Source: Schmidtea polychroa (taxonomy: Eukaryota). From it: 64,000 nt of DNA. Of this stretch, positions 1 to 36,036 are shown in pieces. Under the pieces are notes generated by a model that worked only from the letters and a program-made list of their open reading frames with translations, did not search any database and was not told where the DNA came from. Numbering within the stretch: position 1 is the first letter of the stretch; each line of letters opens with the position of its first letter. The stretch covers positions 162,986,312 to 163,050,311 of the forward strand of contig CM097886.1 of assembly GCA_044892525.1 (NCBI GenBank), given 5' to 3'. Both the position numbers and the translations under genes were made by a program.

Positions 1-1179
1 TTGGGGCAATCAAACCTTCGTACCTCACTGAATTATTATCAACTCGATTGCTAAGGAAATTAATGAAGTTAATTAATTAAATTAAGGAAGTTAATTACAA
101 TTTTCTCATTGGTGTTGTCAAACGATCTTTGCTCATTCGAGATGTCATAATACATTATTGATCAATAGTAATTGTTCGGAGATTCGGCCAAATGCTGATA
201 TCCCTGAAATATTATGAAATTTTAGGATATAAATGCTTAAAATTTTAATTTATTTACATTATTATATCAAAGTTAACTAAAATCATATATTTATTCAAAA
301 TTTGTTATTTAACATTAATTATAATTACTATAATAAAACAACGAAAATTTAAATAATGTTAAATAACTTTAACAAAACAAAAAGTAATAATGAAATCAAA
401 ATTCCATTACTTTATTTAAATTATTAGTTACCAACTTGTTCTAGTATTTTAACATAATGAATTCAAGTATATTACGGAGTTAGTTTGGTCATTTGAGGAA
501 TATTATAAATTGAAAATTTAAGTAGATTAGAATTATTTACTCTTCATAAGAACTTTTATGATTGTAATGAATCTAAACTTCATATATTAATATTACCCAT
601 AATTTACAAGTGATATTTGGATTATGTTAAAATAGGTTGTAAGTTAACTTAACTAAATTGAAATTTTCTTTTGATCAGGTTATCGTGGGGAATGCATGTT
701 ATCTTTATCATTTCTATTGTTTCAGTTTATTAAGTTTTTTTTTTTTCTAATTAAATTCATTAGTCTCAAAAATTTCTTGAGGTTTGTTTAATAAACTATG
801 GTTAGGTTTCACTTAATTTATATTCAAACATTTTAGATGTGGTGTTGTATGAACAGGCTTTAATAGAGTAATGTATGATTCCTGATGACTTATGATCGTT
901 TGAGGATAGAAAGTTTGTATAGGCATAGTTGAGGAAGTGATTATAATAAGGGACCTGCGTAAATCGGACATACATCTTCTAACGATAGTCCGTGAACCCA
1001 TTAGAGTGCTCGACAATTACAGTGCAAGTAGTGCGCTCACTTTTTGCGAGTACTCACCCTCTTGATACAGTACCAACGTTGATCGTTCAACGGGTATCAA
1101 GCGGTAAACAATGTTGTATTCTGGGTTACGCTGGAAACAGCACTAAAGAACAAAATATTTGATCATCAGTAACCCACCA
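1..1179 (+). mobile_element. 3' part of the 5' LTR of a giant Gypsy-like LTR retroelement
   Basis: 1-1179 recurs at 16048-17226 with a constant offset of 16047 (the same 67-aa ORF at 813 and 16860). It ends in ...GTAACCCACCA and is followed by a PBS. Confidence 0.92.
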
Positions 1180-1187
1180 TACAAATT

Positions 1188-1205
1188 TGGGGGCTCAGCC
1201 GGGAT
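1188..1205 (+). promoter_or_regulatory. Primer-binding site, tRNA-Pro type
   Basis: TGGGGGCTCAGCCGGGAT matches the classical tRNA-Pro PBS TGGGGGCTCGTCCGGGAT at 16/18 positions. It lies 8 nt after the LTR end and is absent after the 3' LTR. Confidence 0.85.
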
Positions 1206-1975
1206 TATAAACTTTCTTGGTAAAGAACCTGTAAGTAGACGGGAATGCATAGCGTTTTTATGATCAGGAAATGAAATGCTTTATGCAAGAGTAAGAAAGA
1301 TTGTTTTCTCAAATAACTAGACATGATGTGTGAATATGCGTGTAAGATCAAAATGAATGTTGAACGTTGTACATGATGAATAAAATGTTTTAAATTATGT
1401 AAATATAGAAAATCGATAAAACTGGGTATGAGAATAATGTATGAGCGTTCCGTGTTGATGGGATAGAATGTTGATGGGTAAGAAATGAAATAAAAATCAA
1501 AAATAATAAAAATTGTAAATATAAACAACTAATACTTTGTAAATATAAGAAAATAATAAAAAATTCAAAAATAGGGAAAAGGGGGGATAGATGATAACGG
1601 TCTATAGAAAAGGGGGATAAAGCATGAAACAGTGAATTGCGAAATAGAAATAGATAGATAATGCAATTAATTAAAAATAGGGGGAAGATGTAAAACTACG
1701 TTAAAGATTAAAGGGGTATATTGAGTATTTGATAAAATGTCTAAAATTATGGACAAGCTGGGATCAAAAGGGTTATGTAGACTAAGATAATAAACTAGAG
1801 GGAACGGATAAGAATGCGCGGAACATCATTTAATGGATTGGGAGCTTAAACTAACAGGGTAAAACAGCTATTGAACTTACATAATTTGAATAAGGAAATA
1901 AATGGGTAGAGGTTAAGCTAATTAAAGGGGAATAAGAACACTTAATAAAATGCTGAATTAATAAAGTATAACTTG

Positions 1976-2468
1976 ATGGAATTAACCGGCTACATTATAA
2001 AGAAACTTGAAAATTCGTAAAACTCACTACAAAGATTGAATTGAAAAGCAGAGCAGTTGGCAAACACTCAAGAAGGGCTGATCTTAAAACCAAGACCAGT
2101 AGATGATGAATTGTGTATAATGACGAGAATTGCTACACCAAATGTGGAATTAACTACTCAAAGAGTATATCAGATTCAGAATTTACGTTTAGATAAGGCC
2201 AAATTTAACATCAAATGGCAAGAATTAAAGATAAAAATTTAAACGGTTGAAGATGCGATAAGAGAGGCGATCGATAATGAATTCAAATGTTGTGTGTGTA
2301 GAAGCAATGAGATAAAAATAATGATGGTACCTTGCGGACATCTATGTTATTGCCAAGATTGTGCATTGAAACTGAAGCGATTGTAATGTATGTGACGCAA
2401 ACATGAGAGAAAGAGTAGTAGTGTACCTCCCTGAGGGAGATGTAGAAAAATTGAAGATGATGAAATGA
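1976..2468 (+). pseudogene. Decayed ORF with a C-terminal C3HC4 RING finger (IAP/MUL1/neuralized-like RING-HC) inside the retroelement
   Basis: Reading through three stops and one frameshift at about 2381 gives ...FKCCVCRSNEIKIMMVPCGHLCYCQDCALKLKR/CNVCDANMRERVVVYL, with all 8 Zn ligands and the typical PCGH motif. Confidence 0.8.
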
Positions 2469-3876
2469 ATTGCAGCCGAGTGTGAGTTAGTAGAATGTTA
2501 GTAAAACTAATTCCATAATAGCAACCGAAAGGTATAAAACATACGTTGAACATAGACATATGAAATACACAAAAGCCGTTAAATAAATAGACAAGCAACA
2601 CACAAATTAAATTGGCGAAAGCCGTGAATTAAATACAGGACTGGCTGGGATCGCATCAAGTGTGAGCTGATCTATAAGATCAGTACGATTACCATTTTTT
2701 TTTCCTGTTTTTTTTTATTTTTGGCATAGAGAGACAGGACCATAAGGGGATGAGAAGCATATCGTCCCTACGATGCTTACCCGGATGGGGAAATCCTGAT
2801 CACCTTGATGAGAAGAGTATAGTAGGGCCCATCGCAAATGTTGGGGAGTTTCTGTCGAGTGACTGATCACCACTTGTGGGAAATGAACCAACGCGATTAT
2901 TACATTTTTTGAATTTGGGAGACAAGGACAAACTAGAAGGTAAATAAAAAGAAAAAGATAAAAAATAAAAATTGAAAAGGTGCACCAAAAGATAAAAATT
3001 TTAATTATCCGAGAGCAGCTGCGGATTTGAAGAAACCGTTTTTGGACTTCAAATTGGAGGATATGAATTTTTCCCTAGCGAGTGATGAGGCACCCGAGTA
3101 CAGCGGCTAACCACCGGACTGTAGTGTCCAGGAGATTATCAGCCAAGGGACTGATGATGCTGGATCACCCAATACAAAAACCCGGATACCCACACCGAGT
3201 ATTGGGTGCATTTTTTTTTGATTGGCTAGCGGGACTTGATACAAAAACCCGGAAGGGTAGCGAGCGAGAGAGACCCAGTTACCTACACCGAGTATTAAGG
3301 AGCCCAGTGAAACGGTTGTGAGATGCGGGTCAACCGGTAAAGGACTCGTACTCAACAGGCAACCAAGATTGGACCAGTTGTGAGGCGGGAGACCGAGAGT
3401 CAACTGCATATCCAATTTCCTTTTATCTTCACTAGTCGGGAGATCTGGTTCATCACTTTTGAGAATCAAGATCGAGGCGATTAGGCATTTCCGTGTTTTT
3501 TAAATCCTGATAGATAGGATGTTTTTTTCTTCGTGATTATTGCTAGCAGGGGTCGGTACAAAACCCGGATGCCCACACCGAGTACCGATAGGCCCAGTGA
3601 AACGGCGATGAGATTAGGGTTACCGGTATTAAACTCTTTTCAATAGGCGGCCAAGAATTGAGCTAGTTGTGAGGCCTCAGCAGATTAATAATTTGAGTAG
3701 GAGGAACCTTAAATTTTTAATTGGTCCGAAAGTCAACTGTCAACTCAATTTAATCGCGGTAGGGACGATAGTAGGTGTAAAAACTGAAGGCGTCTGGGGG
3801 TTGAAGAAACCTCATTTAGGGCATTTGAAACCGATCAGGGACCGAAGACCGCGAATACGGCGTAAAGGTGTAAAAG

Positions 3877-4715
3877 CCCAGGCGTCTAGGAGTCGTAAAA
3901 GACTTCAAAGATTAAAAGTATAATTAAACCGGCCGGAAGCCGATGCCGACGCGGAGGTCTAATAAACCGAAGCGTTGATGGTTGATAGTGAATTATATGG
4001 CGTAATGGTGTAAATACCCAGGCGTCTAGGAGTCGTAAAAGACTTCGGAGATTAAAAGTATAATTAAACCGGCCGGAAGCCGATGCCGACGCGGAGGTCG
4101 AATAAACCGAAGCGTTGATGGTTGATAGTGAATTATATGGCGTAACGGTGTAAGAACCCAGGCGTCTAGGAGTCGTAAAAGACTTCAAAGTTTAAAATAT
4201 GATTAAACCGGCCGGAAGCCGATGCCGACGCGGAGGTCGAATAAACCGAAGCGTTGATGGTTGATAGTGAATTATATGGCGTAATGGTGTTAAAGCCCAG
4301 GCGTCTAGGAGTCGTAAAAGACTTCAAAGATTAAAAGTATAATTAAACCGGCCGGAAGCCGATGCCGACGCGGAGGTCTAATAAACCGAAGCGTTGATGG
4401 TTGATAGTGAATTATATGGCGTAATGGTGTAAATACCCAGGCGTCTAGGAGTCGTAAAAGACTTCGGAGATTAAAAGTATAATTAAACCGGCCGGAAGCC
4501 GATGCCGACGCGGAGGTCGAATAAACCGAAGCGTTGATGGTTGATAGTGAATTATATGGCGTAATGGTGTTAAAGCCCAGGCGTCTAGGAGTCGTAAAAG
4601 ACTTCATGAGATTAAAATGAGTTGATTAAACCGGCCAGAGAGCCGATGGTAATTGAATGAAAATAAATGATTTAAATGAAATAAGAGAGGTGATTAAACC
4701 AGCCAGGGAGCCGAT
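3877..4715. repeat. Tandem array of about 140-bp units with a 419-bp higher-order repeat
   Basis: CCCAGGCGTCTAGG starts at 3877, 4017, 4157, 4296, 4436 and 4576. Units 1/4 and 2/5 share diagnostic variants. Confidence 0.95.
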
Positions 4716-5592
4716 GGTAAATAAATGTAGACGTAGAGGTCGCGCGAACCGAAGCGTCGATGATTAACTATGAACGAAATAAAAGAGATAAACGATTAAG
4801 ATGAAATCGATTAAATTGACATAGATTAAGTGCGACAAAGAGGTAATGATTAAAGGAAAATTATGATAGAGCGCCGGCGCAAGAGAAAATGAAACCAAAT
4901 TTTTGAATGGGGAAAAGCGAATGAGGAGATATTAATTAAGTTACTGATGAGTTTTATATGTATATGACTAATGATATATATTTTTGAATTATATAATTGA
5001 TGTTGTGATTATACGATAGATAATTGATACGACGATATAGATAATTGATACGAGTTATAGATAATTAAAAATGGACTTAAATTCAAAGGGGGGTGAGTAG
5101 CAAAAAGTAAAAGCGTACCATGAATTAGAAAAGGAACAGCGAGAGAAATAATGAGTAAAGAGTAGTATAAAATAAAGAAAATAGGGAAATAAATGAAGGG
5201 TAGGATAAAATGAATAAAATATTATGATATGTACTAGGAGTGTTAATTATTTTAGAATAAGTCAATCAATAAGTCAGAAGGAAGTCAATACAAGCCAAGA
5301 ATTCAAGAGAAATAAAGAGAAATCAAAAATTCAAAAGAAAACAACTAAGGAATCAAGAGAATCAAACGAGGATAGAAGAAAGGTAAACAAAGTCAAATTA
5401 AATAACAAGAGGAAAATTAAAGCGTTGGCCAACGAAACACAGTGAAATTCAAAAGAGATTATTAAAGCAAGAAAAATTGATAATAAAGCCAATCGAACGA
5501 GATCGCAGAGCAAAGGAGGCTCTAGTTTATTAGGAAACGCAGGGAGACAAAGAGCCAAGAGAAACAGAAGAATCAATAAGAAACCAGCGTCA

Positions 5593-8500
5593 GTGAAAAC
5601 ATTATTTGAATCAGACAGCTTAACCAACGAAAGTGAAAACAGCGACGATATTAAAAGAAACGAATTATATCCGGTAACTGATATCAAACCAACAGACAAG
5701 GAAGATAGTAGTTCAGGCATAACAAGTTTGTGTCGAGATATAATGTTAGACGGAAACCAAGTGAACAACCCGAATGGGTCAGAGTCGACATACACACCCG
5801 AAATAAACCATGTCAACGTCAATGTTGGAGAATTTAGAGAAAGATTTCGAGGAGAACCATTCGATGGGAATATTAATGAACTAGAAACGTTTATAAAAGA
5901 ATTCGAGGTATATATTACGATATGTCACTGGCCAGACATAGTCGTACGAGAGCGAATACCATTATATTTAAGAGGAAGTGCACAAGATGTATATTTAGAG
6001 GCAAAGTGTGATACAACAAAACTAAAAACATGGAAATCAATAAAGAATTTTTTAATAAAAACATTCGGTAGCAAAAGGGAAGTAAATCGCAAAATGTTGG
6101 ATTTTCTGCATCGAAAGCAGAAATACAATGAGTCAAACGCACTATATGCAGGTGAATTAAGACGACTGGCAAAAGAAGCATTCGATTCAAATCAAACAGT
6201 TCCGGAAGACAAGATAATAGCCGTATTCGTAGAGGGTATGAAAAGAAAGGACATACGAGCAACAGTGGGTTGCCGAGCGCCAGACACGCTCGAGGAAGCA
6301 TTAAAAATCGCTAATAAATGTGAAAACTACTTGACTCCAGTACAAGTAGCAGCAATGGCAGCAGTACCAATAGCTACAACACCAACAACGACAACCGAAA
6401 TTAATCAAACCAACAATGAAAATCTAGGAATGAATCAATTTATCTCAGAATCGCAACAGTTGTTCAAGGCGCCAAAAACGACAAATCCAGATAACAGAGG
6501 TAATATTCAATTTTACACTAATAATTTCAGGAGCAACGAGAACAATAATCGGAAGTGTAACATATGTCAACGACTAGGACATTGGAGCAACGAGTGTTAT
6601 AAGACAAGGATGTGCCAAAATTGCGGTAAAAGGGGTCACACAGAAAATATATGCCGAGGACCAATGATGTCGATGAGAAGAGGAAGGACTAGAACCTGCT
6701 ACAGTTGCAACCAACTTGGACATGTGGCGAGAGAATGCGCGATGAAGACAAAACATAATCAACCAAGAGCAAACGATCCAAGTCAAAATATACAAATCAA
6801 CATCATGCAGAAAATTGAACAGTTGAAAAAGATGATCCAACGGATACCAGAGGATATCCGGAAACGACCAACAAGAGAACAACAAGACCAGCAACGAATC
6901 GAAGGGCAGAGACCACTAAACGAAAAAGCCAGAGAAATTCAAAAAAGATGGAAAAAGCGAGAAACCAACACCGGAAGAATAAATATGATGAGATTAATGA
7001 ACAAAGGGGAACCGCACACTGCGGAGCAGTGTGTTAACAAGAAAGGGAGCGATATGACCGTAATCAACGAGACAAAAGTGATAAAAGAAAATGGGTCACA
7101 TCAATTGACGGAGCAATTGACAGAACTGAGTAGCGAGGATAAAATAAAAATAATACAAGGGTTCACCAAAGAAGAAAAAGAAAAGAGACGAAGAAGAGAT
7201 GAAACAGGGCACGAACCAAAAAGCAACGAGATTGTTACAAAGAATCGAATTCAGAGGGTATTACTACAAAAAATTGAAGATAGAATTAGAAGAGAAGAAC
7301 CAAAATTAACGGATGAGCAAGTAAAAGAAAAAGTAAAAGACAACTGGTTCAGGAAAAATGAGTGGTTCGAAAAGAAAGAACCAAGTAACAGAGCCAATAT
7401 AAACATGCTGAGACAAATACAGAATGATCAGACGGATCAGGAAGACGGGAAAAGTGCGATGAGTAGCCTGAGAAGTGAATTATCTCAATCAAGTGATGAA
7501 AATAATGAACAAGGAACACCTCAAAATAACGAAGAGGGTGAGAGCGACGATATGGGATCACTGATAGAAAATGACGATGAGGAAATATTCGAGGAAATTT
7601 CCGACATGGTATCGGAAAGAGAACGAAATGAGAGCTATATCAACGAACCAACATACAGAAAATGTATAAAACTGATAACTCAAGCATACCAGTGGGAAGG
7701 AGATATATTAACGGCAACATGGAAAGATTTGGTGACGAAATATAAAGGAAAATTGAAAGAAGTTGATCCAGATCAATACCAAGTAAGTATTCAACACCCT
7801 GAAACTCAGATACAGATTATTGAATTAAAAGTAACAAATACCGATAAACTGTATAATTGGGTACAACAAAAGATGGGAACAAGTCATAAAAATAAACAGC
7901 TATACGACAATGGTTATAAAGTTAAAATGAGCATACATTTAGTAGATATGATGAGATGGCCAAACGAAGTTAATATCTTAATCTTAAAGAAAAACAGAGA
8001 CAGCGAATCAGTAACGGAAATACTGAGGAAAATCCAACAGATATTCAACAATGAAGTGGAACCAGAAATAGAAAAGACTGAACAAAAGATAATGAAGGAA
8101 AATCAAATAATCGTAGTAAAACAAGCAATCGATCAAGCGAAGAAATATATTAACAGATTTAGGGAAAGATGGCCGCAGCTAATGAAACAGTTTGTCAAAG
8201 ACGTACGGGATACTGAGATTATGGGATTTGAATATAAACGAGCAACGGAGTTGATATCAAAATATGGTGAATACGAGAGAATCAGATGTGAACAAGAATT
8301 ACCATGGCCATCCAACAGAAAAGTGACAATAGTAAGAGAATCACTGAAGAATAGTCATTTAAATAAACACGAAGAAATGATCAAAACATCACATGTCGAA
8401 GACGACATTTTTGGAAAAGGCCGGAGTGGAAAAAATGACAAAGACCATAACGACAAAAATGAGGAAGACGACGGGAACCATGAAAGGAACAACATAAATG

Positions 8501-8745
8501 GGAACTCAAACGAACGAGATAATGAAGAAGACAAGGAGTCAGAAGATGACGACGAAGACTTGAAGGATACTGAGGACAACTCAGACCAAAGTGAAGACAA
8601 CCAACATAATGAAACAGAGAACGACAAACGAAAGTCCCCACTGCATAACATAGTAATGCGGAAGAATCTAAACCAGTCACTCCTACTACAAATTATCCTA
8701 ATAATACTAACGTCAATTTACCTAACAGAAACGAAAAATAGGTGA
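5593..8745 (+). CDS. gag: Gag polyprotein (Ty3/Gypsy capsid, three CCHC zinc knuckles, long charged/acidic extension, C-terminal hydrophobic signal-like segment)
   Basis: 1050-aa intact ORF. Capsid-like FDGNINELETFIKEFE...W...LYLRGSAQDVY...TLEEALKIA; knuckles CNICQRLGHWSNEC, CQNCGKRGHTENIC and CYSCNQLGHVAREC. Confidence 0.92.
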   Translation: MKTLFESDSLTNESENSDDIKRNELYPVTDIKPTDKEDSSSGITSLCRDIMLDGNQVNNPNGSESTYTPEINHVNVNVGEFRERFRGEPFDGNINELETFIKEFEVYITICHWPDIVVRERIPLYLRGSAQDVYLEAKCDTTKLKTWKSIKNFLIKTFGSKREVNRKMLDFLHRKQKYNESNALYAGELRRLAKEAFDSNQTVPEDKIIAVFVEGMKRKDIRATVGCRAPDTLEEALKIANKCENYLTPVQVAAMAAVPIATTPTTTTEINQTNNENLGMNQFISESQQLFKAPKTTNPDNRGNIQFYTNNFRSNENNNRKCNICQRLGHWSNECYKTRMCQNCGKRGHTENICRGPMMSMRRGRTRTCYSCNQLGHVARECAMKTKHNQPRANDPSQNIQINIMQKIEQLKKMIQRIPEDIRKRPTREQQDQQRIEGQRPLNEKAREIQKRWKKRETNTGRINMMRLMNKGEPHTAEQCVNKKGSDMTVINETKVIKENGSHQLTEQLTELSSEDKIKIIQGFTKEEKEKRRRRDETGHEPKSNEIVTKNRIQRVLLQKIEDRIRREEPKLTDEQVKEKVKDNWFRKNEWFEKKEPSNRANINMLRQIQNDQTDQEDGKSAMSSLRSELSQSSDENNEQGTPQNNEEGESDDMGSLIENDDEEIFEEISDMVSERERNESYINEPTYRKCIKLITQAYQWEGDILTATWKDLVTKYKGKLKEVDPDQYQVSIQHPETQIQIIELKVTNTDKLYNWVQQKMGTSHKNKQLYDNGYKVKMSIHLVDMMRWPNEVNILILKKNRDSESVTEILRKIQQIFNNEVEPEIEKTEQKIMKENQIIVVKQAIDQAKKYINRFRERWPQLMKQFVKDVRDTEIMGFEYKRATELISKYGEYERIRCEQELPWPSNRKVTIVRESLKNSHLNKHEEMIKTSHVEDDIFGKGRSGKNDKDHNDKNEEDDGNHERNNINGNSNERDNEEDKESEDDDEDLKDTEDNSDQSEDNQHNETENDKRKSPLHNIVMRKNLNQSLLLQIILIILTSIYLTETKNR

Positions 8746-9960
8746 ATTACGAGAGGAAATCTGAAAGAAGGCGAACTATTCATGATAAAAGTCAGCGGCA
8801 ACGACGGAAACGCGGTCGGGATATGCATCCAATTGATGGAAGGAACCGGAGTAAGTTGTGATTTTAGAACGATAACAAAAGGGAGGATTTTCAATAGTCA
8901 AAATGGAGAACCTGAATTATGCGGAGACTACAACATTTGCGAAGACATAACATCAGAAGAAAAAGAATTGGAAAGAGCTAACGAAACCGGAGTACATGTC
9001 GCAATTAAAGCTACAATGGAAGGTATCGAAATAATAGATAAAGGAAATTTGCCAACAACGCAAATATGTTTTAGAGATGACGAAGACATATGTATAACGG
9101 TGGACATGAAACGAGATCGCGAATTTTTTTGGACAAACGTAAAACCAAACACCAACATGGTGGTATGCGCAGGTACCCAGGCAATAGTGGTATGTAAAGC
9201 AGTTAAAACCGCGCAAATAAAAAGCAGGCCAAAAAGTATGGCTAGTAAACGATATCAACCAAGGATCAAACCGGCAATTAAGAAACCCCAGAAACAATCC
9301 CGTACGGGAATGATAAGAGGACAGCACCAAACCAAGAAAAACACAACAGTAATATGGATCAAAGATGAGAGACGAGAAGTACTAGTAAATGTCGAATTCA
9401 ACAAGATAAGAGAAGAAGTAATCACGGTCAGAAACCAAGGTGAAGAACCAATAGTAAGAGTATGTGTACTAAACAGGACAGGAATAGTCGACTGCATAGA
9501 AACACTACTTGACAAAGGTGCAGAAGTTAAAATGACAATAGGAGAAAGAAAGGGACGATACCACATATGCGTTCTTAAAAACGGAAGCGATTTAAGTTCA
9601 TGCCAAGCAATAACCAGACAACGACCACGGATGATAAACATACTATTGACAACCAGAAAACCAAAAGAAGTGGAAAAGCCAAAAGGAAACGAACATCTAA
9701 CGGCAGAAGAAACGAAACAGTTATACCAGATGCTCAAGAAAAATAAAACACAAGAGGCAACTACAACAGAAACTAAAATGATGATAACGACAGGAAAATT
9801 CAACGAGACACTGATAACCGTTAAAATGATGTGGATCGCTAGCGCAATAATGAGTGCAGTGATAACATCAATAATAATCCAATGGATAAGAACCTCCAAA
9901 ATATGTAAACAAAAACCTAAAGGCAGAAAAAGATGGCCACAAGTGGAGAATTCCGAATAG
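8746..9960 (+). CDS. Cys-rich, putative type-I membrane protein (env-like?) in frame with gag
   Basis: Same frame as gag and separated by one TGA (8743-8745); first ATG at 8782. Many Cys, and a TM-like MMWIASAIMSAVITSIIIQWI followed by basic RTSKICKQKPKGRKR. No family recognised. Confidence 0.5.
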   Translation: MTRGNLKEGELFMIKVSGNDGNAVGICIQLMEGTGVSCDFRTITKGRIFNSQNGEPELCGDYNICEDITSEEKELERANETGVHVAIKATMEGIEIIDKGNLPTTQICFRDDEDICITVDMKRDREFFWTNVKPNTNMVVCAGTQAIVVCKAVKTAQIKSRPKSMASKRYQPRIKPAIKKPQKQSRTGMIRGQHQTKKNTTVIWIKDERREVLVNVEFNKIREEVITVRNQGEEPIVRVCVLNRTGIVDCIETLLDKGAEVKMTIGERKGRYHICVLKNGSDLSSCQAITRQRPRMINILLTTRKPKEVEKPKGNEHLTAEETKQLYQMLKKNKTQEATTTETKMMITTGKFNETLITVKMMWIASAIMSAVITSIIIQWIRTSKICKQKPKGRKRWPQVENSE

Positions 9961-11600
9961 GGTATTCCAACAGAAAACCCGAATCCAGAAGAGTACGAAG
10001 CGATTGAAGATCCAAGGTCAAGCAGACTATGGATGCAAGAATTACTCAGAATACAAACCCTAGACGATTGGGTAAACGAATTTGACATATACCGGCTAAC
10101 GGATGAAAGATATGGGGGGATGCGCACATTGCATTCAGGTCCCCTGGCAACAATGGTATAAGAAAGTGATGAGTCGATGTAAATAGTGTGTATATAAACG
10201 TGAGGGTAAAAGTAGTTTAGTAGATTAGTAATATGTTCAAAAAAAAAAAGGTACAAAAAAAAATGGGTAGGATAACTACGTATTATGAATGAATCAGAGA
10301 AACGAGGATCAAGTATATCAAACGAGGATACCACATGTTGTTGAATTGGGAAATCAACCACTAGTAAACATTAATCAGACATAAATAGTAGAAATTGATA
10401 CAAGTACAACGATAAACCAACCAAGTTAGTCAGCAGGATCAATGTGAAGAACACAATGTGAATTAATGACAAATGACAAATCATACCCAAGAATATCGGT
10501 TACGTAATTAGAATGCGTTAATGGAGAGCATCAATAGAAACTCGATATATATAACAAGAATAAAAGAGCAATAACAAATAATCGCACAATTAAAATACAA
10601 TAACAAACAGTTGATAAGCCAAATAAAATGGGAGGCAGGAGAAATCGGGAGATTACACGAAAACCATCAGCATGATGATATAACGAGTTAAGTTGAATGG
10701 ATAACCGGCCTACCAGGAACTGGGGAACCGGACTCAACGAGAGAGGCATAAAAGAAGGGAAAAGTAGCCCTGTAAACAAACAAAATTATAGCCAAAGTAG
10801 AAAATCCGAAATTAAACGCTATCATGGCAGAATGCCGAGGGAAAGTGGAGAGAAGTGGAGGAACAAAACTATTAATTATGAGCTGATAAGAAAATATTAG
10901 GTCAAGTCAGATGAATTCGAGGAGAGACTATTGTGTGTGGACAAAGTGTGTAGAAGATTATTAATAGGACACGTCAAACCCTATGAGGATGTAGATTATG
11001 CCATGGAGGTACTACACGAATTGTAACGAGAAAAGCAGAAATTAAAGAGAGAACCACAGCAAGAATCAGCCACATCCCAGATGACAATAATAATAAAAAT
11101 CTTAGAAGAAATAAAGCAGCGAATAATGATGACTGTCAACGAATGTCCGAGCAACTATGAAACAAAGACGCTCGAAGAAATAAAGGAAAGGGTAAATAAC
11201 GCAGTCAAAGAAAAGACAATTACTCAAGATGAAATAATAAAAACATTGAGAGAGATATAGATGGAAATAATAACAACTATTGACAAAATCCCGATGAACC
11301 ATGAGACAATGACCAAAACTTTAGAAGGAATAAAGAGGAGAATATCAACTACCTTCAACGAAGACTTCGCATACTAAAATGTCCTAATAAAGATGTTCAC
11401 GGAAATCTGGAAAGGAGTAATGACGACAGTAAACAATACCCTACACACTGAATCAAATAACCTCGAAGAGGAACTCAACTCGACTGATACAATCCAACTA
11501 ATGAAAACAGTGAGCACGTTGCGAGAGATATAGAAAGAAGTGACAATCAAAACAAGGTCAGCAGAAAAAAAAAAATTGAATGTAAAGAAAACCCAGAATC
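9961..11600 (+). pseudogene. Degenerate continuation of the retroelement polyprotein
   Basis: The same A-rich codon-like composition continues after the TAG at 9958-9960, with many stops. Helical repeats TLEEIKERV / TLREI / TLEGIKRRI near 11100-11550. No RT, RNase H or integrase motifs seen. Confidence 0.55.
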
Positions 11601-13949
11601 CATAACAGTACTGATCCTGTCAGCAGCGAATCTCATGATAAATAACAATACTGAGCTTGATAGCCCTTAAACCCACTCAAATCCATGAAAGCACCAAAAT
11701 CTCTCAAGTTGAAAGAACAATTCCGAAGCATTCGCATTCTAATAGACGAACCAATACCCAGAGACCAAATCTATCAAATCTATCAAATCTATCTTCTACA
11801 ACCTTCAAAACTAGAACCGTCATCGAGACGAGATCCCGAACAACCGAGTGTTTAAATCCTGATATAAACCGACAATGATCTTGATATAATATGACAACGA
11901 TATTGAGTTGATTGACAATGTTCTTATTATGTGTTGACAATGATCCTGATTCGATTGACAATGATCTGAAAATGATCTAGATGTGATTTAATAATGATCC
12001 TGACATGATACAACAATGATATGATTTGATTATTATTGTGATTTGATGCCAATATTATATATTACTATGATATTATTTGAGCATAACAATTTAATTAAAT
12101 TTTGTGTGGACCGACCTTGGTCTTCTTTCTCTTCATCTGTAAACCAATCTGTAGCATGTAGCTTATCAGTAGAAACTTTTTATGTATGTGGGTATTGAGG
12201 TCACGACCCTGTAGCTCGTGGACCCAATTACATGTAGGCACTTGTAATACAGTGCAACCAATTCTGTCTAATTATATCTTGAACATTGATTAAATTGCGG
12301 GTCGCAATTTTATGGGCCCCCGAGTGTTTTATGTTGGGCTAGAACTGATTTCTAGACCCAAAGTTAGGAATGGGACGAAATGTGTCAGTACACAACACGC
12401 ATACCCAGCATTAAGTTTACTTAAATAAAAATATATAAAACACCAAGTAAACAATGATAATAGAGAGATAATATACCCAAAAATAAAACATCTGAATTAA
12501 AAATAAAATAAAACACGAGCAAGAAGTATTACATGAAAACTTACTCAAATATAACCAAAAGACATAAAACAACAAAAAACAAATTCGAATAAAGGCAATT
12601 AGTAAAAATTAAAAAAGAAAATTAAAGAAAATCTTCATAAAATCTTACGTAAAGAAAATTATATCGATATTTTGAATAAAAATCCAGAACAATTCATAAA
12701 AATGGCGAAATCCATCATGACGGCCAAACGACCCAATAAAATTTATAAAAAATAAATATTTTAGTTTAAAAAATAAATATTTTAGAAAAGAAATCATAAA
12801 AAACAATTTAAAAATAAGAAATAGATTAAATTTAGCATGGAATGTTCTGGAAATGCTGAAATCCATCATGGAGGCAAATTTAATAAAAAATAATTCGAAA
12901 ATAAAATTTCAAAAATAAAAACAAAAATTCTTACTGAAAAATCGCCATTAAAATCGATAAAAATTAAAAATCGAATGTTCGAGAATTAAAATAATTCGAA
13001 TTTGTTTTACTGCATCAATGCACGCATGTATACTTACACGTCAAACAGAGGCTATATAAACTAACACATTTCGTCACTTTTTAAGCAAGCAAAATATGCT
13101 AATGTTTACTCTTATGCCAAATTTTTGATTTTGATTTTTCTGAGATTGTAGGTAAGGACGATTTCATTGTGAATTATAAATTATTATTATTGAAACCTTG
13201 TTTTCATTATTTCTTTTTAACTATAGAAATGTAGGTTTGAGTGAGATCGTCGGTTATCATTGATTTTGGAGCGAGATCCCAGTCAACCCTGCACCTATGC
13301 ACTTTATCATCGATGATTAAACAGCCCACAATGATTGCAGGTCACTGCCTGGCACGCACTTATCAATATTATTTGTTTTTTTTTGTTCAGGTCATTCGGA
13401 GGTCGCACCACTTCATGGTTCTGCCATGGAGTTAAGTCGATGAAATCCTCCGTCTGACTCTACCTATTTATTATAGGTCAGCCGTAAAGGGTTGACTTAC
13501 CACACAACAGTAAGGTTTGTCGTAGTGGTCACAGTGGGGCCGCGAAAGCAAACACTCCTCCCGACTTTCAATGCATGAATAATTTACATAGTTAAAATCT
13601 ACATCCAAAAGCATCACAATACAATACACTAAGGTTAATAAACAGAGTAGATCTCAGACCTAAATCAATCACAACTCTACAATTCACAATTAATGTAGAC
13701 GGTTAAATATCATCAAGAACCCACTCTACCTATACGTTTGTCGAATCTAGATTCATGAATGTCTTAAATAAATTTTTTTAGTAATAGTGTAAAGCAAAGA
13801 TTTTTAAAGATGATTAATTTAGTAGTGATAGTATTCATAAAGGTGTTCGACATGCGTATCAGCAAGACTTGGATTTTAAATTGAATAGACTCTAAACTAA
13901 CTATAAAAATACCAATCGTAAACCCATAAAAGTATAAACTATCCTCTCA

Positions 13950-14800
13950 ATTTCATAAAAATATGAATTATACTTATAGATTCAATTTCTTCAAAATATA
14001 AATTATGATTAGTTATAAAAGTATAAATTATAAATTTAATTTCCTAAGAATATAAATTACAAATCTATATTGACGGTAAAATTATAAATTATAACTCTAA
14101 GTTAATTACAAAAGTATAAATTATAAAATTATATTAGCCTTAGAACATAAACTATAAATTTAACTTAACCTCATAAAAATATAAATTATAAACTTAAAAG
14201 TATAAATTATAAAGTTATATTAGCTTTAAAAATATAAATTATAACCTTAACTTCATAAAAATATAAATTATAAAATTATATTGGCTTTAAAATATAAACC
14301 ATAAATTTAACTTCATAAAAATATAAATTATAAACTTAAAAATATAAATTATAAAATTATATTAGCTTTAGAAATATAAACTATGAATTGAACTTCACCA
14401 AATATAAATTATAAACTTAAAAATATAAATTATAAAATTATATTAGCTTTAAAATATAAACCATAAAATTAGCTTCATAAAAATATAAATTATAAACTTA
14501 AAAATATAAATTATAAAATTATATTAGCTTTAGAAATATAAACTATGAATTGAACTTCACCAAATATAAATTATAAACTTAAAAATATAAATTATAAAAT
14601 TATATTAGCTTTAAAATATAAACCATAAAATTAGCTTCATAAAAATATAAATTATAAACTTAAAAATATAAATTATAAAATTATATTAGCTTTAGAAATA
14701 TAAACTATAAATTGAACTTCACCAAATATAAATTATAAACTTAAAAGTATAAATTATAAAATTATATTAGCTTTAAAATATAAACTATAAATTTAACTTA
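13950..14800. repeat. AT-rich minisatellite inside the LTR (AAATATAAATTATAAA-based units, about 160-bp higher-order period)
   Basis: Many copies of AAAATATAAATTATAAA; the block GAAATATAAACTAT...TTCACCAAATATAA recurs near 14370, 14535 and 14695. Confidence 0.85.
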
Positions 14801-15140
14801 ACTTAGATTGCCTTTAACATCATAGTTGAAAATTTTTCATCAAAGACCCCCCATAAACCATATAGTCATCAACTACCACCTAAATATACTAAATTAGCTT
14901 ATCTTAATATATATTTAACTTATATTATATTTTAAAATATAAATTGAAAATTTTCATAAATGACCCCCCTTCAAATTATGTAGCCATTAACTATTCCTTA
15001 GGTATACTGAATTGTATCATCTTCGTATAGAGTCAAATTATATTTCAAACCAAAAAAAAAAAAAATAATAATTCCATAAATTTTCGTAAATGATCCCCCC
15101 CCCCCCATATGTAGTAATCTTATAAAAATATAAATTTACA

Positions 15141-15275
15141 TTTATTATTATTATTATCGTTATTATTATTATTATTGTTATTATTATTATTATTATTATT
15201 ATTAGCATTGTTACCAGTAACATTATCACTCTTACTATTATTATTACTATTATCATTATTATTATTATATTATTA
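15141..15275. repeat. (ATT)n-rich microsatellite inside the LTR
   Basis: Direct reading; an expanded equivalent lies at about 35790-36360 in the solo LTR. Confidence 0.9.
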
Positions 15276-15789
15276 AAATAATTATCTTTATTTCATAAAA
15301 ATAAAATTATAAAACAAATTATTGATTTTGGGATTCCCCTATCTTTAAATTTAGTTTCAATGGCCCTATCTTCCAATAAAATTACGGAAAATCACTAAAA
15401 TCTATTTTTAGTAACACCCCCCCCCTGAAAACGACATCAATATTATTAATTTAAATTATATCCATATATGTATATATGTGTGGGTGTATATGTATGTGTA
15501 TATATAAGTGGATGTGTGCATGTACATACCGATTTATAAAGCAACCTTATAAAAATACGATAACCTTCCCCTCAAGACCCCTGTTATGTGATGGTCACAA
15601 CCCCCTTAAGGTGATGGAGCGAGGTTAGAGTAGTTTACTGAAGTAATTTAGTAGAATCATTTATTGATTTATTAGAATTATTGGATTTATTTTTAACTAA
15701 ATCAAAAGAGACTAAATTTATTTTTAACTAGATCAAAAAAAAAAGAAAAACAAAGACTAAGTTTATTGATTTCGATCATCAACTTTATT

Positions 15790-16250
15790 CATATAATTGT
15801 TTCTTTGAATCATAGTTATACCAAGGTCCTTCGAGCACGGTTGATGGACCATCCCAATGAAATACATTTCCTGGAGTTGGAAGACTTCTGGGTAATTCCT
15901 TATTTTCTGCTTCGTTCCTTTTGGTTCAATGACTTACATATTGATTTGACGTAATATTGTTGGATGGCCAACTATATTCCTTGCATCTCTTTTTGAGTAG
16001 TCATTGTCAGATAATTCCGCCAGGAAGATTAGTTGGTGGAACTGACCTTGGGGCAATCAAACCTTCGTACCTCACTGAATTATTATCAACTCGATTGCTA
16101 AGGAAATTAATGAAGTTAATTAATTAAATTAAGGAAGTTAATTACAATTTTCTCATTGGTGTTGTCAAACGATCTTTGCTCATTCGAGATGTCATAATAC
16201 ATTATTGATCAATAGTAATTGTTCGGAGATTCGGCCAAATGCTGATATCC
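15790..16250 (-). pseudogene. Putative spliced antisense gene remnant within the LTR U3
   Basis: Minus-strand segments DISIWPNLRTITIDQ*CIMTSRMSKDRLTTPMRK, NRVDNNSVRYEGLIAPRSVPPTN and SLPTPGNVFHWDGPSTVLEGPWYNYDSKKQLYE* are separated by GT...AG blocks of about 50 bp. The first segment resembles a minus-strand segment at about 36850-36990. Confidence 0.45.
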
Positions 16251-17227
16251 CTGAAATATTATGAAATTTTAGGATATAAATGCTTAAAATTTTAATTTAT
16301 TTACATTATTATATCAAAGTTAACTAAAATCATATATTTATTCAAAATTTGTTATTTAACATTAATTATAATTACTATAATAAAACAACGAAAATTTAAA
16401 TAATGTTAAATAACTTTAACAAAACAAAAAGTAATAATGAAATCAAAATTCCATTACTTTATTTAAATTATTAGTTACCAACTTGTTCTAGTATTTTAAC
16501 ATAATGAATTCAAGTATATTACGGAGTTAGTTTGGTCATTTGAGGAATATTATAAATTGAAAATTTAAGTAGATTAGAATTATTTACTCTTCATAAGAAC
16601 TTTTATGATTGTAATGAATCTAAACTTCATATATTAATATTACCCATAATTTACAAGTGATATTTGGATTATGTTAAAATAGGTTGTAAGTTAACTTAAC
16701 TAAATTGAAATTTTCTTTTGATCAGGTTATCGTGGGGAATGCATGTTATCTTTATCATTTCTATTGTTTCAGTTTATTAAGTTTTTTTTTTTTCTAATTA
16801 AATTCATTAGTCTCAAAAATTTCTTGAGGTTTGTTTAATAAACTATGGTTAGGTTTCACTTAATTTATATTCAAACATTTTAGATGTGGTGTTGTATGAA
16901 CAGGCTTTAATAGAGTAATGTATGATTCCTGATGACTTATGATCGTTTGAGGATAGAAAGTTTGTATAGGCATAGTTGAGGAAGTGATTATAATAAGGGA
17001 CCTGCGTAAATCGGACATACATCTTCTAACGATAGTCCGTGAACCCATTAGAGTGCTCGACAATTACAGTGCAAGTAGTGCGCTCACTTTTTGCGAGTAC
17101 TCACCCTCTTGATACAGTACCAACGTTGATCGTTCAACGGGTATCAAGCGGTAAACAATGTTGTATTCTGGGTTACGCTGGAAACAGCACTAAAGAACAA
17201 AATATTTGATCATCAGTAACCCACCAT

Positions 17228-26130: not shown

Positions 26131-26447
26131 GTCACTGGAACGCCTAAGAGCCAAGTTAAGAAGTTCAAGGCCAATTGAGGGACAAAAGATCGTAAGAGTA
26201 GTAGAGTCAGCTCTCCTAGCTGAAAGGGCGAAAGGGAAATAAAAGCGAAGGGACCCAGGTGATCCGATAAGATTTGCTGGGGTGAGGGTAGGTGAACGAA
26301 TGCCTATGGGGGTAGACACGTGCTAACACCCGAGCGACCTGGAATCTAAGCAAATACGGGGGACTGCGAACATTACGTAAGTATACGCGACAATCGGAGT
26401 GGAAATAATTGCAACACGACTCCTATTAAACATTATATTTTTACAAG

Positions 26448-26715
26448 ATTCTTGACCAACCTAACCAGAGTGAAGAAGAATCGCAAGCGGAATCAGTTAC
26501 TCGCCTCCGGACCCGCTTGGTTTGGTATAAAATACATGAGTGGACACGGGGAGGATTAGTCGACCTTGGACCCATCATTCAGACTGAATGCGAGCCAGGA
26601 GCCTGGGTCAAGTCCGAACCAAAGAACAACGAGCTATACCAGGCCAGGCAGGAGGCGGATGTAACAGTAGCCAGGCTTCGCCTTGGAGTCCGGAGATCCG
26701 GTGGAGGAGGTAGAA
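26448..26715 (+). pseudogene. Divergent homologue of LTR-encoded ORF A (N-terminal part)
   Basis: VTRLRTRLVW...GAWVKSEPKNNELYQARQEADVTVARLRL aligns with ITRLRTRYIW...PAWVKTEPENNRLQEARDQAAWDVEAAQIRL of 37477-37857. Confidence 0.75.
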
Positions 26716-26719
26716 ATTA

Positions 26720-29060
26720 CAAAACTTTCTTCGCCTCCTTCCCCTTCAATGACTTCGCAGACTGGAACGAGATTATCATACCAATGACCAATGGCAGGGA
26801 CAGCTGGCTCTTCTTCTCCCTTGATAAACACCGCCAACTAGCAGTGATCATAGAACCAATGAGTGAAGACAGCCTCTTACTACATCACGATATTGCCATC
26901 AACCTATTAGATACTATTCTTAGTCTCCAAAATATCGTCAGTCAAGTCACCCTATCACTAACGAATCTTGAATACTTACGATGCTCGACACCACTTGAAT
27001 CTGTCCAATACGTATGCCACATACTGAAATGCCTTACCTCATACACTCCCATCACCACTCCTGACCTATCCCATATGCTGAAAGATATGAGGCAGATTAT
27101 TTCCACTTTCATCCATAATAAGCTACCTATTAATAAAATGAGAAAAAAACCACATATTCCTCATAAACCTCACTGAACAACTCTCCCAAAACCAAATAGG
27201 CACCCAATCAGCCCTTAACAAGATTGAACGAATTAATGGCAACATCAACCCAGACAGATACAAGACAATAAAACCAGCAGACGCCACACACAAAAAGCTG
27301 AAATCAGAGAATGAGCTCATCTGCATTAAACGAGCCAGATTCCACATGAAACCCAAGGAAGAGATTGGGAAAATCATTGGGGCGGACCTACCTCTACATA
27401 GGCCCACTATGGCCAATATACTTCTTCTCTTCGGGGCTGTACTTATACCCATATCCGACCTAACTGATTTATCACTTCCTTCATTTCCTAAAAGTACATC
27501 TTCTATCCGTTTCGACATTGATGACCTTCGCTCCACTATCGTCTCACTGGACAACACTGCACCAGGCATCGACAAGATCACCTTATCCGACTGGAAAAAG
27601 ATATGCCCCGATATGGAACCCCTTCTTGTTATCTGTAATAACGTACTTTCCACCTCGATATGCCCTCCCAGCTGGAAGACCTTTCGGACCAAACTGATAC
27701 TCAAACATGGGAAACATGAAACGAGCCATGAGGCTCGTTCGTGGCGCCCTATCTCTGTCATGAACACCGTCTACCGTATCTTCTCCTTTGTCCTTAATCA
27801 TAGTATCTTATTCTGGATCAGTCAAGGTCTTCTGCTTACCACTAACCAAAAAGCCATTGGCACCCCAGATGGCTGCGCCGAACATAACCTAACTCTTCAC
27901 CTCATCAAAGACTTCTCTGTCCCAATAAAACGGAACTCCATATCATTTGGCTAGATATCACTGATTCTTTTGGCTCCCTACCCCATGATCTAATCTAGCA
28001 CACTCTGACTCACATGGGCCTTCATCAACAAACCATCGACCTCATCATGGATATGTATTCCAATGTCAACACCATCTTCGAGTGCGAGGGAGTACTGTCC
28101 ACCTCGGTGCCTATTGTCAAAGGAGTAAAGCAAGGTTGCCCACTCTCTATGTCCCTCTTCTGCCTTTCGATTGACTTTATCTTAAGAACTATACTACGCG
28201 AACACCCTTTCTTTCTTCACAAACACAATATAAGCATCATGGCATACGCTGATGACATTGTCCTTATCGCCGACTCCTTCTCCTGCATTACCGCCGCACT
28301 AGCTGAGACTGTGCGACTGGCACAAAAAGTTAATTTTCAGTTTAAACCTTCCAAATCTGGCTATTTCTCGCTCAACACTCTCGACCCCACCCCGTCACAC
28401 TCTATCGCGAAAGATTACCAATTATTGACGACTCAAACCTCTACCGTTACCTCGGCGTCGACTTCGCGCACAAAAATAAGCACAACATCGAGGAAAGACT
28501 TGACAACGCTCTGAAAGACACAAAACTTATCTTCCAATCCTACCTGCGCCTGGGACAGAAGTTAATGTCCTACAAGATTTTTATACACTCCCGCCTCATC
28601 TTCACTTTCCGAAACTGCGAAATCAGACATATGACGCTAGACTCGAAACGTCTTAGGAGAGGGGACGCGCAATATTGGGGTTTTGACCAAAAACTTAAAG
28701 ACATTTTCTCATTTCCTCAGTCTAGCAGAAATAATATTTTGCTTAGAAATTCATGTTTATATAACGGTTGACAAGTAATAAGGTACTCATAATGTTCAAG
28801 AGGTAACTAAACTAATAAATGACCTTTATTTGGCCAGTGATTTTTTTAGTAAAAATAGAAAGATTTTATTTATCAGTTTGCAAATGTGTAATCGTCTTAT
28901 TATCTACCTGTCTGCTATGGAGAGTTGTAAAAGAGATTTTTCAATGTCTCATCCCAAACACGGATCGAGTGTCCACTCTTCAACGACAGAGACTGCACGG
29001 ACGATTTGGCTCAATACATGGACCGCGAGATGGAAGTGCTCACCTTAGTCCAATGAGATT
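26720..29060 (+). mobile_element. Fragmented non-LTR retrotransposon of an RLE-type clade (NeSL/Utopia/R4-like), reverse transcriptase region
   Basis: APGIDKIT, SWRPIS, NQKA...DGCAEH, KGVKQGCPLS, AYADDIVL and YRYLG motifs across ORFs 27346-27954 and 28014-28514 and the following frame; frameshifted. Confidence 0.9.
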
Positions 29061-31457: not shown

Positions 31458-31700
31458 GTGGATCACAGGTAATCAACATTTTACCTTGTCGTGCTGTTTC
31501 CAGCGTAACCCAGGATACAATGGAAATTTGACAACTTGGTACCCGTTAAATGATCAACGTTGGCACTGTATCAAGGATTGGAGCACTAGCAAAAAGTGAG
31601 TATGCTTGGTATACTATAATTGTCCAGTACTCACTTGGCTCCACGGACTGCCGATAGAAGACCTATGCCCGACTTTCGACTGGTCTTTATCCTACTAACC
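31458..31700 (-). mobile_element. Divergent remnant of the LTR 3' end (R/U5), reverse orientation
   Basis: The reverse complement shares GGGTTACGCTGGAAACAGCAC, CAACGTTGATC and the flanking stems with 17010-17200. Confidence 0.8.
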
Positions 31701-33542: not shown

Positions 33543-36036
33543 TTATACAACAATAAATAGTATAATAATACTTATGAAACTATACTTATGAAATAATTTA
33601 AATTATCCTTTTCTAGTTCTGATATAAACATATATGGGAAAATATCAATTATGCTACTATAAGTTGCTATTAAAGTCTATTACATCTGGTTTTATAATTT
33701 AGGTTGCGAGTAATTTATTAATATCCTATTAATTATGAATATTTGATGGGTTACAACATACGGTTGATTAAATTATTAAAATGATATGAGATAATTTATC
33801 GACCCAAAGTCCATGTAGAATTTATAGTGAGTATAAATACAAGATATGAGATTATACTGCTATTATATATAATAATAGTTCATAAATTAGAATTAAATTT
33901 AATCTATTCCTTATTTTTAAATTGTATTTTGTATATTGTTGGGCTAGAACTGATTCCTAGACCCAAACTTCTAATTGTGGCTGCAATGTGTAGGTACACA
34001 ACATGCAAAAAGCAAAAAGTATAGTCAAATATTAAAAATACACCAAATAAACAATATTAACTAAAGGAGAAAGCAACAAAAATAATAAACACACAAATTA
34101 AATAAAATTATACCAAAAGCAAGAAGTTATGCAAAATAGAACTCAAAAATAACCAAACAAACATAGAGTTACAAAAAACAAACTCGAAAAACTTAAAAGA
34201 CGATAAAAACAACAAAAAAATTCCAGAAAAACCCAGAACATTCCATAAAAATGGCGACAATCATCACAAAAGCTACCTTGAACAATAAAAGTTAGAAAAA
34301 TAACTAAATTAGTAATAAAAATAAAAATTCGTAAAAAGAAATTCATAAAACATAGGTTAAAATAAAAATAAAATTAAAATTAACATGGAATGTTCTGGAA
34401 CCGTTCCAAATCCATCATGGACGTCAAATTAACGAAAAATAATTAAAAAATAAAAATTTAAAAATAAAAACAAAAATTATGGCACAAAAATTGCCATTAA
34501 AAATAGCAAAATCGCAAAATAGAAAATTCTGGAATAAAAAAGAATTGGAGTTTGTTTTAATGCATCAATACATACACGTGTACAAAATAGGTATATATAC
34601 TGACACGTTTCAGCCACAGAGCATCATTATTTTATGCCAAAAAAATTTCTTTTTGTCAAAAGGATATCAATAGTAAGTATTATTGTGTCAATTTTTTTGT
34701 GTACTATTATTTGTGTATTACTATTATTAACTCATCTATGCTAAAAGAGATTTTTAACGATTTTATATTTTTGATTTTCATTAGATCAACTTTTTGAGCA
34801 ATGTACGAAGGTTCAACGGCGTATTGGTGTTCCTGCGCCGTTGTTCGGTCCTACATTCGATTTTGGAAAATTTCATAGGACATGCCAACATGCATTATCT
34901 ATATTATATTAATCGATATTATACGGTTCTTTTTGTTCGGGTCAGCCGGAGGTCGAACTACTTCATGGTCCTGCCATGGAGTTAGGTCGAGGAAACCCTC
35001 CGCCTGACTCCTTGTATTTATTTAAGGTCAACCGTAAATGGTTGACTCAGCACACAACACTAAGGTTTGTGGAAGTGGTCACAGTTGGGCCATGGAAGCA
35101 ATATTCTTCCCGACCTTTTACGTAACACATATTTAAATTCAACATTTAAAATTAGTACAACACAAAATACACTAAGGTTCTAAATTGAGTAGAACTCATA
35201 CCTAAACTTACACAGTTCTGCAAACACACTAAAGTAGCTGGTCGATTAATAATAAAATTTGGGTTACGCGTGGACATATGCCGAATTGGGTTTGGTAACA
35301 TCATCTCATATTAATTGGAATAGAAACGGGAAAATTATTCGGCCTATGTCCAAGTAGAGCCTGCTAAGGGGTCGACTATGAACTCATTCCCCCGCAGATA
35401 TAGAATTATGAATTATGAAATACAAAATTATAACTCGTAGGATATAAAACTGTAAATTAGAGACTATAATATTAATAGTAGAATATAAAGTCATCAAGGG
35501 TAAAAGAAAAATTATATAACATAAATTCCTAAATCGAAGAATATAAAGTCATGAAATGAAAAATTTGAACTTGTGAAATATGAATTTACAAATTATAAAA
35601 TTAGAAGTTGGAATGGTAAATTAGGAATTATCAGAATATGAATTTATAAAGTGTAATGCATAAAATTGTAACCTATAATCAGTACATAGGACCTGCCCCG
35701 AACTATCAAATATTAATCCTGATATAACCCTCCAACAGGTATGAAAGTAAATTATAACGATGTATAAGTGAATACATTCAACATTATTAGCAGATTTACT
35801 CATATTATTAACATTATTACTCTTATTATTATTGTCATTATTATTATCATTATTATTAACACTATTGTTATTAAGGTAAATTACAACGATTTACAAGTAA
35901 ATATTATCAACATTATTACTCTTATTATTATTGTCGTTATTATTATCATTATTATTATCACTATTGTTATTAAGGTAACTTACAACGATTTACAAGTAAA
36001 TATTATCAACATTATTGGCAGTATTACTCATATTAT

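Follow-up and report, generated by a model that had tools for sequence, protein, structure and literature searches.

The window, a stretch of 64,000 nucleotides of the Schmidtea polychroa genome, contains most of an LTR element about 20.9 kb long (Table 1). The 5′ LTR of this element reaches back 3,718 bases beyond the first letter of the window, and this upstream part is 99.95% identical to the 3′ LTR. The LTRs have TG...CA ends and are accompanied by a 4-base target duplication (TGTA). Given that the two LTRs are 99.95 to 100% identical, the element was inserted recently. The LTR is followed by a primer-binding site (PBS), which by its likeness may be of the tRNA-Pro type, then by the broken remains of a RING gene, here called ORF0, a non-coding leader and an open gag frame. 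The identity of the leader to an autonomous element exceeds that of ORF0 (73 to 76%) and gag (about 80%) in the same comparison, and the leader is likely to act as a packaging or dimerisation signal.

Table 1. Features of the LTR element within the window
Feature	Position in window	Strand	Basis
5′ LTR, 3′ end part	1..1179	+	no mismatch to 16048-17226
Primer-binding site	1188..1205	+	motif at equivalent place in autonomous elements
Broken ORF0: helical N-terminal part and C-terminal IAP-type RING-HC	1976..2435	+	PF13920 and homology
Highly conserved non-coding leader	2931..3930	+	92-98% identical to an autonomous element
Tandem array in leader, units of about 140 bases	3855..4713	+	repeat family D3
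Open gag frame, first ATG at 5743	5446..8745	+	Pfam Retrotrans_gag, zf-CCHC
Rest of polyprotein C-terminus, interrupted by stops in the window copy	8746..10161	+	homology
Remnants of 3′ accessory genes	10289..11848	+	homology
3′ LTR, 4,895 bases	12332..17226	+	LTR comparison
TATA-like box (13053-13060) and GTAAG donor-like site (13152-13156) in 3′ LTR	13053..13156	+	LTR alignment

The gag frame is fused to the C-terminal part of the polyprotein over a large internal deletion near 8298-8335. In a comparison with a full element, 5458-8298 corresponds to polyprotein residues 6-967 and 8335-10158 to residues 4184-4791, while residues from about 968 to 4183, and with them PR, RT, RH and IN, are absent. 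A second deletion has removed most of a TRAF-like gene and an entire BIR-RING IAP gene; DNA matches to relatives end at 11002 and restart at 11596.

The RING gene lies between the PBS and gag, where the preliminary description of this DNA had placed it. Its start codon is the ATG at 1976, and its RING occupies about 2288-2397. All eight ligands of the C3HC4 set that had been reported are present, six of them in the open stretch 2243-2383 and two in the next frame past a frameshift near 2381, with the last two ligands and the tail out of frame. Against the profile zf-C3HC4_3 (PF13920), for which the curated cut-off is 27 bits, the natural sequence of 2246-2383, which is unbroken, reaches 39.1 bits (E 6.5e-10); because this stretch alone scores so high, the likeness to a RING is not due to chance. 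The same profile also recognizes intact and diverged relatives of the gene (below). Over residues 1-160, the window copy is 59 to 65% identical to intact ORF0. Relative to an intact copy, it has indels of 1 and 11 bases near 2010-2018, has lost bases in frame at two points near 2274-2284 and shifts frame within the RING near 2381; stops stand at 2042-2044 and 2240-2242. The stops noted in the preliminary description are therefore real, but its single frameshift is an undercount. Intact relatives stop at the position equivalent to 2433-2435, and the frame of the window copy continues to 2468. With two frameshifted regions and two stops, the window copy of ORF0 is a dead gene, an ordinary pseudogene, and the window element moved recently without a working ORF0.

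The same damage is found throughout the family of the window element. Searching with the RING fragment yielded, among 150 scored matches, 115 of at least 80% identity, and the longest open frame in these had 113 codons (counts made by eye). No intact ORF0 was present among the 115 close matches or among 53 aligned family copies, which were picked from two match searches and represent 29 distinct sequences. The early frameshift and a stop at codon 27 occur in all 53 aligned copies, the RING frameshift in 52, and a stop at codon 93 in 38. ORF0 thus died a single time, before the window family spread. Among 20 family copies, the junction of the first (pol) deletion is whole in 12, split in one, longer in one and beyond reach in six, and five of the 20 keep a continuous gag-fusion frame of 1,572 codons. 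The copy with the longer junction (L243) has about 820 extra bases at the pol deletion and the same ORF0 breaks, and represents an earlier stage of that deletion. Three pairs of family copies lie on the same strand 16 to 17 kb apart (in G000, C1:85878366 and 85894776; C1:199556471 and 199572487; C2:115531932 and 115549013), a spacing expected for tandem elements with a shared LTR.

Weaker matches to the RING fragment led to an open frame of 160 codons just ahead of gag, 655 to 797 bases after the PBS, and this is the intact ORF0. It is free of stops in 143 of the 150 best matches of what we call the near lineage (a sample that favours intact copies) and in 144 of the 150 best matches of one diverged lineage. 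ORF0 is intact in hundreds of giant Burro-type gypsy elements of the Schmidtea polychroa genome. The suggestion that the family carries, or once carried, a RING accessory gene upstream of gag is thereby borne out by the profile match and by hundreds of other elements; the window's own family carried ORF0 only formerly, and its autonomous relatives keep the gene intact.

Five near-lineage elements examined over 40 kb are about 31 to 34 kb long (element D, 34.2 kb). Their polyprotein comprises Gag, MATH, a viral fusion-glycoprotein domain, PR, RT, RH, IN and ankyrin repeats (Pfam, element C), and polyprotein frames of autonomous elements have 4,791 and 4,732 codons. Downstream of it lie a TRAF-like gene, a 392-residue BIR-RING gene and further ORFs. 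The TRAF-like gene is present in all ten autonomous elements examined. By eye, it begins with a TRAF-type N-terminal RING in which Cys replaces His, followed by zinc fingers and MATH (L101:5377-6837; L287), and a full element can therefore encode three RING proteins. The LTRs of autonomous elements also hold open frames of 156 to 264 codons (L091:5123-6488, L285:3440-4231 and the matching 3′ LTRs); the two tested had no Pfam match. Likewise, BCL2-like, SUMO-like and dUTPase-like motifs gave no Pfam match at E 0.01 in element C.

Burro/GYPSM1 elements are described as giant gypsy-like LTR retrotransposons of planarians (PMC6431247). The autonomous relatives share with them a size of about 30 to 34 kb and a polyprotein of about 4,700 to 4,800 residues, with Gag, CCHC knuckles, MATH and a mononegavirus-like fusion protein between gag and protease, then PR-RT-RH-IN and ankyrin repeats, and accessory ORFs with TRAF/MATH and BIR. 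Their total length is near or above 30 kb, their LTRs are long, and Gag, MATH, Env, PR, RT, RH, IN and ANK form a single polyprotein. By this architecture, rather than by comparison with a Burro reference sequence, we would assign them to the Burro group. The window element differs as a 20.9-kb derivative lacking MATH, env, pol and IAP. The passage on Burro/GYPSM1 in that account names no stand-alone RING gene between the PBS and gag, and the "AIR1 RING" and the upstream MATH ORF of D. tigrina mentioned there are things other than ORF0.

To see how widespread ORF0 is, we used a 16-base core of the PBS as a key, which had 1,074 exact matches in the genome (control, 0), and inspected the first 40 sites in list order, all at one end of contig C1. 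Twenty-three of these sites have an intact ORF0 (11 of the near lineage and 12 diverged), four have the broken form, and 13 lack both ORF0 and gag within 6 kb. Every one of the 26 gag-bearing sites also carries ORF0 or its remnant. The 13 sites without either gene (L247, L254, L256, L261, L266, L271, L274, L275, L278, L279, L281, L282 and L283) are probably another large non-autonomous family; twelve of them share one LTR end.

The diverged ORF0 genes form two further lineages. Their products have 154 to 161 residues, are 25 to 28% identical to those of the near lineage, with which they align almost without gaps, and accompany gag genes that are 41 to 43% identical. All three diverged ORF0 proteins tested pass the PF13920 cut-off (34.5 to 43.2 bits, against 45.1 bits for intact near-lineage ORF0). 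Five diverged elements analysed in full are 29.8 to 30.6 kb long and have near-identical LTRs, a polyprotein and a TRAF-like gene; the BIR-RING IAP gene is absent from all five, and ORF0 is kept in all five. ORF0 is therefore more widespread than the BIR-RING gene, the published B-IAP, and is likely to be the older of the two. A public gene model, P0005, contains a gap-free relative 34% identical to ORF0 that is apparently joined to a Burro-like gag. In a RING tree of 96 rows and 60 columns, built without hits above P0090 and without the diverged lineages, P0005 groups with ORF0 (support 100/91). This tree, of the kind proposed in the preliminary description, did not resolve the donor of the ORF0 RING.

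The dN/dS comparison, also proposed in the preliminary description, reveals purifying selection on ORF0 in the autonomous relatives. Between subfamilies of the near lineage, dN/dS is 0.08 to 0.15 at dS of 0.3 to 0.9 (ten copies), with similar values in the helices (0.09) and the RING (0.11). Within diverged lineages, dN is 0.06 to 0.11 at dS of 0.4 to 1.25 (dN/dS 0.06 to 0.3). The window copy compared with intact copies still gives 0.09 to 0.16 at dS of 0.9 to 1.7, which indicates that the gene was retained over most of the history of its lineage. The 39 distinct intact frames contain 107 synonymous and 98 non-synonymous variants, against 44 and 129 in the broken family (Fisher P = 1.2e-7); the intact set spans older splits, and single subfamilies still give 0.17 to 0.19. 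Against expectation, pN/pS within the broken family did not differ significantly between ORF0 (0.62 to 0.72) and gag (0.53; P = 0.23 to 1.0). In the autonomous elements, ORF0 is a protein-coding gene, and purifying selection maintains it in three deep lineages.

The intact product has 160 residues, with helices followed by a C-terminal IAP-type RING and no BIR. A predicted model has three helices (residues 2-41, 46-57 and 65-110) and the RING, with pLDDT of 88 to 95 over the RING and 53 to 88 over the helices (pTM 0.38); the underlying alignment contained 19 unrelated RING rows, and a fold from the single sequence had a pLDDT of 41. By sequence and fold, the nearest solved RINGs are those of cIAP2, cIAP1, XIAP and IDOL. 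A search among longer proteins returned mostly IAPs, with a profile that was itself loaded with IAP-type RINGs. The N-terminal helices have no relative in Pfam, Atlas or the protein collections beyond P0001, P0002, P0152 and P0005, no nucleic-acid-binding domain was detected in ORF0, and BIR had no match on ORF0 of any lineage. ORF0 thus has an IAP-type RING, yet it is not an IAP.

Every lineage examined retains the zinc ligands and an aromatic tail residue and lacks two residues that are common on the E2-ubiquitin face; the second zinc loop is thereby unusual. All eight ligands and the tail Tyr are conserved in nine of nine full-length aligned proteins, and the Tyr lies three or four residues from the end in 39/39 near-lineage and 12/12 diverged proteins. 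At the linchpin position, 38 of 39 near-lineage proteins have Asp, and the diverged lineages have Val, Thr, Ala or Lys; the usual Pro after the seventh ligand occurs in none of the 39 and none of the 12. Among 144 other RING matches, Arg occupies the linchpin in 86 and Asp in 11, and the Pro is present in 103. The element's own BIR-RING keeps both residues in a canonical C-P-x-C-R, as do other C-terminal RINGs of the IAP-type class in the genome. The first-loop hydrophobic position is Ala in one lineage and in P0005. In RNF38, E2-ubiquitin binding is reported to become 9 to 44 times weaker when the linchpin Arg is replaced (27.7-fold with Asp), and most variants without the Arg to have minimal activity, with Lys among the best substitutes; XIAP is an active ligase without the Arg (PMC12326332). 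In our RING comparison, the XIAP residue is Tyr. ORF0 therefore lacks the cationic linchpin of active RING ligases, which is not strictly required, and has their aromatic C-terminal tail. In IAPs and MDM2, such a tail drives RING dimerisation and dimer-dependent activation. ORF0, which the preliminary description took for a ubiquitin ligase, may be one; given that no lineage has the Pro or an Arg linchpin, its activity is more likely to be weak than strong, and it may instead be a decoy.

How ORF0 might be expressed can be read from its surroundings. Twenty-six ATGs lie between the PBS and ORF0, which makes scanning from the full-length RNA unlikely. A TATA-like box followed about 60 to 100 bases on by GTAAG is aligned in all five near-lineage LTRs, and a donor-like site near the TATA box is seen in only three of five diverged elements. 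An acceptor-like TTAG immediately precedes the ORF0 ATG in 40/40 near-lineage contexts, and a T-rich tract with AG two bases before the ATG is found in 12/12 diverged copies; as a background, 66 of 676 ATGs come immediately after AG. The acceptor-like signal is lost in 43 of 53 broken-family copies. These signals suggest that ORF0 would be made from its own spliced mRNA, with the 5′ copy of the LTR providing start and first exon. Contigs of four presumed-RNA runs, compared over a stretch without the proposed donor, contained no GT-AG joint at ORF0. BURRO1 is reported to be transcribed upon smedwi-2 depletion (PMC8532177).

ORF0 type agrees with LTR type in 39 of 39 assignable copies, and the 5′ module seems to have been exchanged between subfamilies. 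Elements A, B, D and E (L091-L094, L095-L098, L174-L177 and L178-L181) are mosaic, with dS of 0.75 to 0.85 in ORF0 and 0.07 to 0.39 in body genes, and their LTRs cannot be aligned past the first 720 bases.

We propose, with about even confidence for and against, that ORF0 is a core accessory gene of Burro elements whose RING dimer works in trans as a low-activity ligase on host TRAF/IAP-type signalling; catalytic activity and target are the least certain parts of this reading. The protein would be translated from an mRNA spliced from the LTR donor to the acceptor just before the ATG. Its aromatic tail would drive RING dimerisation as in IAPs and MDM2, and its N-terminal helices would replace BIR domains in the choice of partner or substrate, so that, acting in trans, it could modify death or defence signalling of the TRAF/IAP type. 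The window family, which keeps LTRs, PBS, leader and often gag, would borrow pol from helper elements. The same helpers could provide ORF0 protein, and a non-autonomous family may therefore lose ORF0 and yet spread: a product that acts on the cell, and not on its own RNA, can be borrowed like pol.

An appreciable possibility, though short of probable, is that the RING of ORF0 has little or no catalytic activity and that ORF0 uses its tail to bind host ligases with IAP-type RINGs, which it tunes, sequesters or destabilises as an MDMX-like partner or decoy. The missing Arg linchpin and Pro in every lineage and the first-loop Ala in one, together with the retained ligands and aromatic tail, fit such a role, and the genome contains other C-terminal RINGs of the IAP type that have the canonical C-P-x-C-R. 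However, XIAP is a ligase without the Arg (PMC12326332), Asp is also found at the linchpin of 11 of the 144 other RING matches, one lineage has the Lys that ranks among the best RNF38 substitutes, and the element's own IAP is no general partner, being absent from all five diverged elements. A farther-reaching version, which we consider doubtful, would make ORF0 the most ancient and most widely shared of the Burro genes for host control. With the TRAF-like protein it would form a ubiquitin module of TRAF/IAP style encoded by the retroelement and expressed, as in complex retroviruses, from spliced mRNAs, and it would act as a decoy partner of host IAP ligases; B-IAP would have been added later in one lineage, and ORF0 would be a second Burro gene shaping stem-cell survival. 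The idea that ORF0 is a duplicate of the BIR-RING gene, or needs it as a partner, was rejected, given their low identity and separate branches and the absence of the partner from all five diverged elements.

ORF0 could instead serve the element's own cycle: for the budding or turnover of particles, it would ubiquitinate or escort products that contain Gag or Env. It is more widely shared than the IAP gene and invariably adjoins gag, the polyprotein has a fusion-glycoprotein domain, and the family that lost env lost ORF0 too. We nevertheless think this role unlikely, as the broken family still inserts anew, with the full gag frame kept in five of 20 copies, and as ORF0 types follow LTR type rather than gag type, which argues against tight co-adaptation with Gag. 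We consider it very unlikely that ORF0 regulates, in an LTR-matched manner, how its element is transcribed or spliced. The agreement of ORF0 and LTR types, and the high ORF0 dS between the mosaic elements with similar body genes, would be expected of such a regulator, but most of the LTR (R-U5), the PBS and ORF0 would lie together at the 5′ end of the RNA, and plain linkage explains the match; moreover, the window family is active with an LTR type of its own and without ORF0, and ORF0 shows no nucleic-acid-binding domain. A one-off capture of a host RING fragment without function for the element, to which the broken state of the window copy and its family might point, has practically no chance of being right and is refuted by the intact ORF0 under purifying selection in three lineages 25 to 28% identical and by the gag-joined relative P0005.

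The proposed trans-acting ligase has its closest solved comparison in the C-terminal dimeric RING ligases cIAP1, cIAP2, XIAP and IDOL (PDB 3eb5, 6hpr, 4ic2 and 2yho). ORF0 shares their RING-HC spacing, pre-RING helix, terminal position and aromatic tail. Unlike them, it has no BIR, UBA, CARD or FERM and no Pro or Arg in the second zinc loop, and its approximately 105 helical residues have no known relative outside Burro-type elements. Baculoviruses, iridoviruses and giant viruses carry small RING proteins and IAPs, and short coil-plus-RING proteins of invertebrate viruses match the RING of the model; these matches are limited to the RING. Among non-autonomous elements, the TR-GAG elements of plants are gag-only LTR elements that have LTRs, a PBS and gag, lack pol and are mobile. 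The window element differs from them in being an animal element of 21 kb that arose by internal deletions of a giant gypsy element and retains a dead accessory gene.

The Burro1 BIR-RING gene (B-IAP; Lee et al. 2026 Dev Cell) is reported to protect stem cells from apoptosis (PMC13465017). The near-lineage elements have a gene of this kind, with 392 residues, 3′ of the polyprotein. ORF0 shares with B-IAP an IAP-type RING borne by the element, but it is a separate 5′ gene without BIR, on a separate branch of the tree. It is 39% identical to the element's BIR-RING over 44 RING residues only, lacks the canonical C-P-x-C-R, and occurs in lineages without a BIR-RING gene. The Burro group and its apoptosis- and ubiquitin-related domains are already published, and the conserved BIR-less RING accessory gene is an addition. 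In the literature searched, we found no description of a stand-alone RING gene before gag, and the word "RING" is absent from PMC5408684; Grohme et al. 2018, Lee et al. 2026, supplements and Repbase, which lay outside that search, may show ORF0.

Burro elements reportedly aid planarian regeneration through the BIR-RING gene. A second, BIR-less RING gene, under selection across deeper lineages and even in elements without the IAP, implies that Burro reaches further into the ubiquitin signalling of the host than that one gene, and has probably done so for longer, and knock-downs of whole Burro transcripts may affect more than B-IAP. ORF0 is a small, expressible protein, and the window family is a natural loss-of-function family, which makes both suitable for direct tests.

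Elsewhere in the window, 33934-39037 is probably a solo LTR from a related subfamily, and LTR fragments in inverted orientation lie at 31491-31660 and 39231-39474. By eye, broken frames at 26430-28511 (+) resemble a non-LTR reverse transcriptase element, and at 53586-55283 (−) a frame of 566 codons resembles a DNA transposase.
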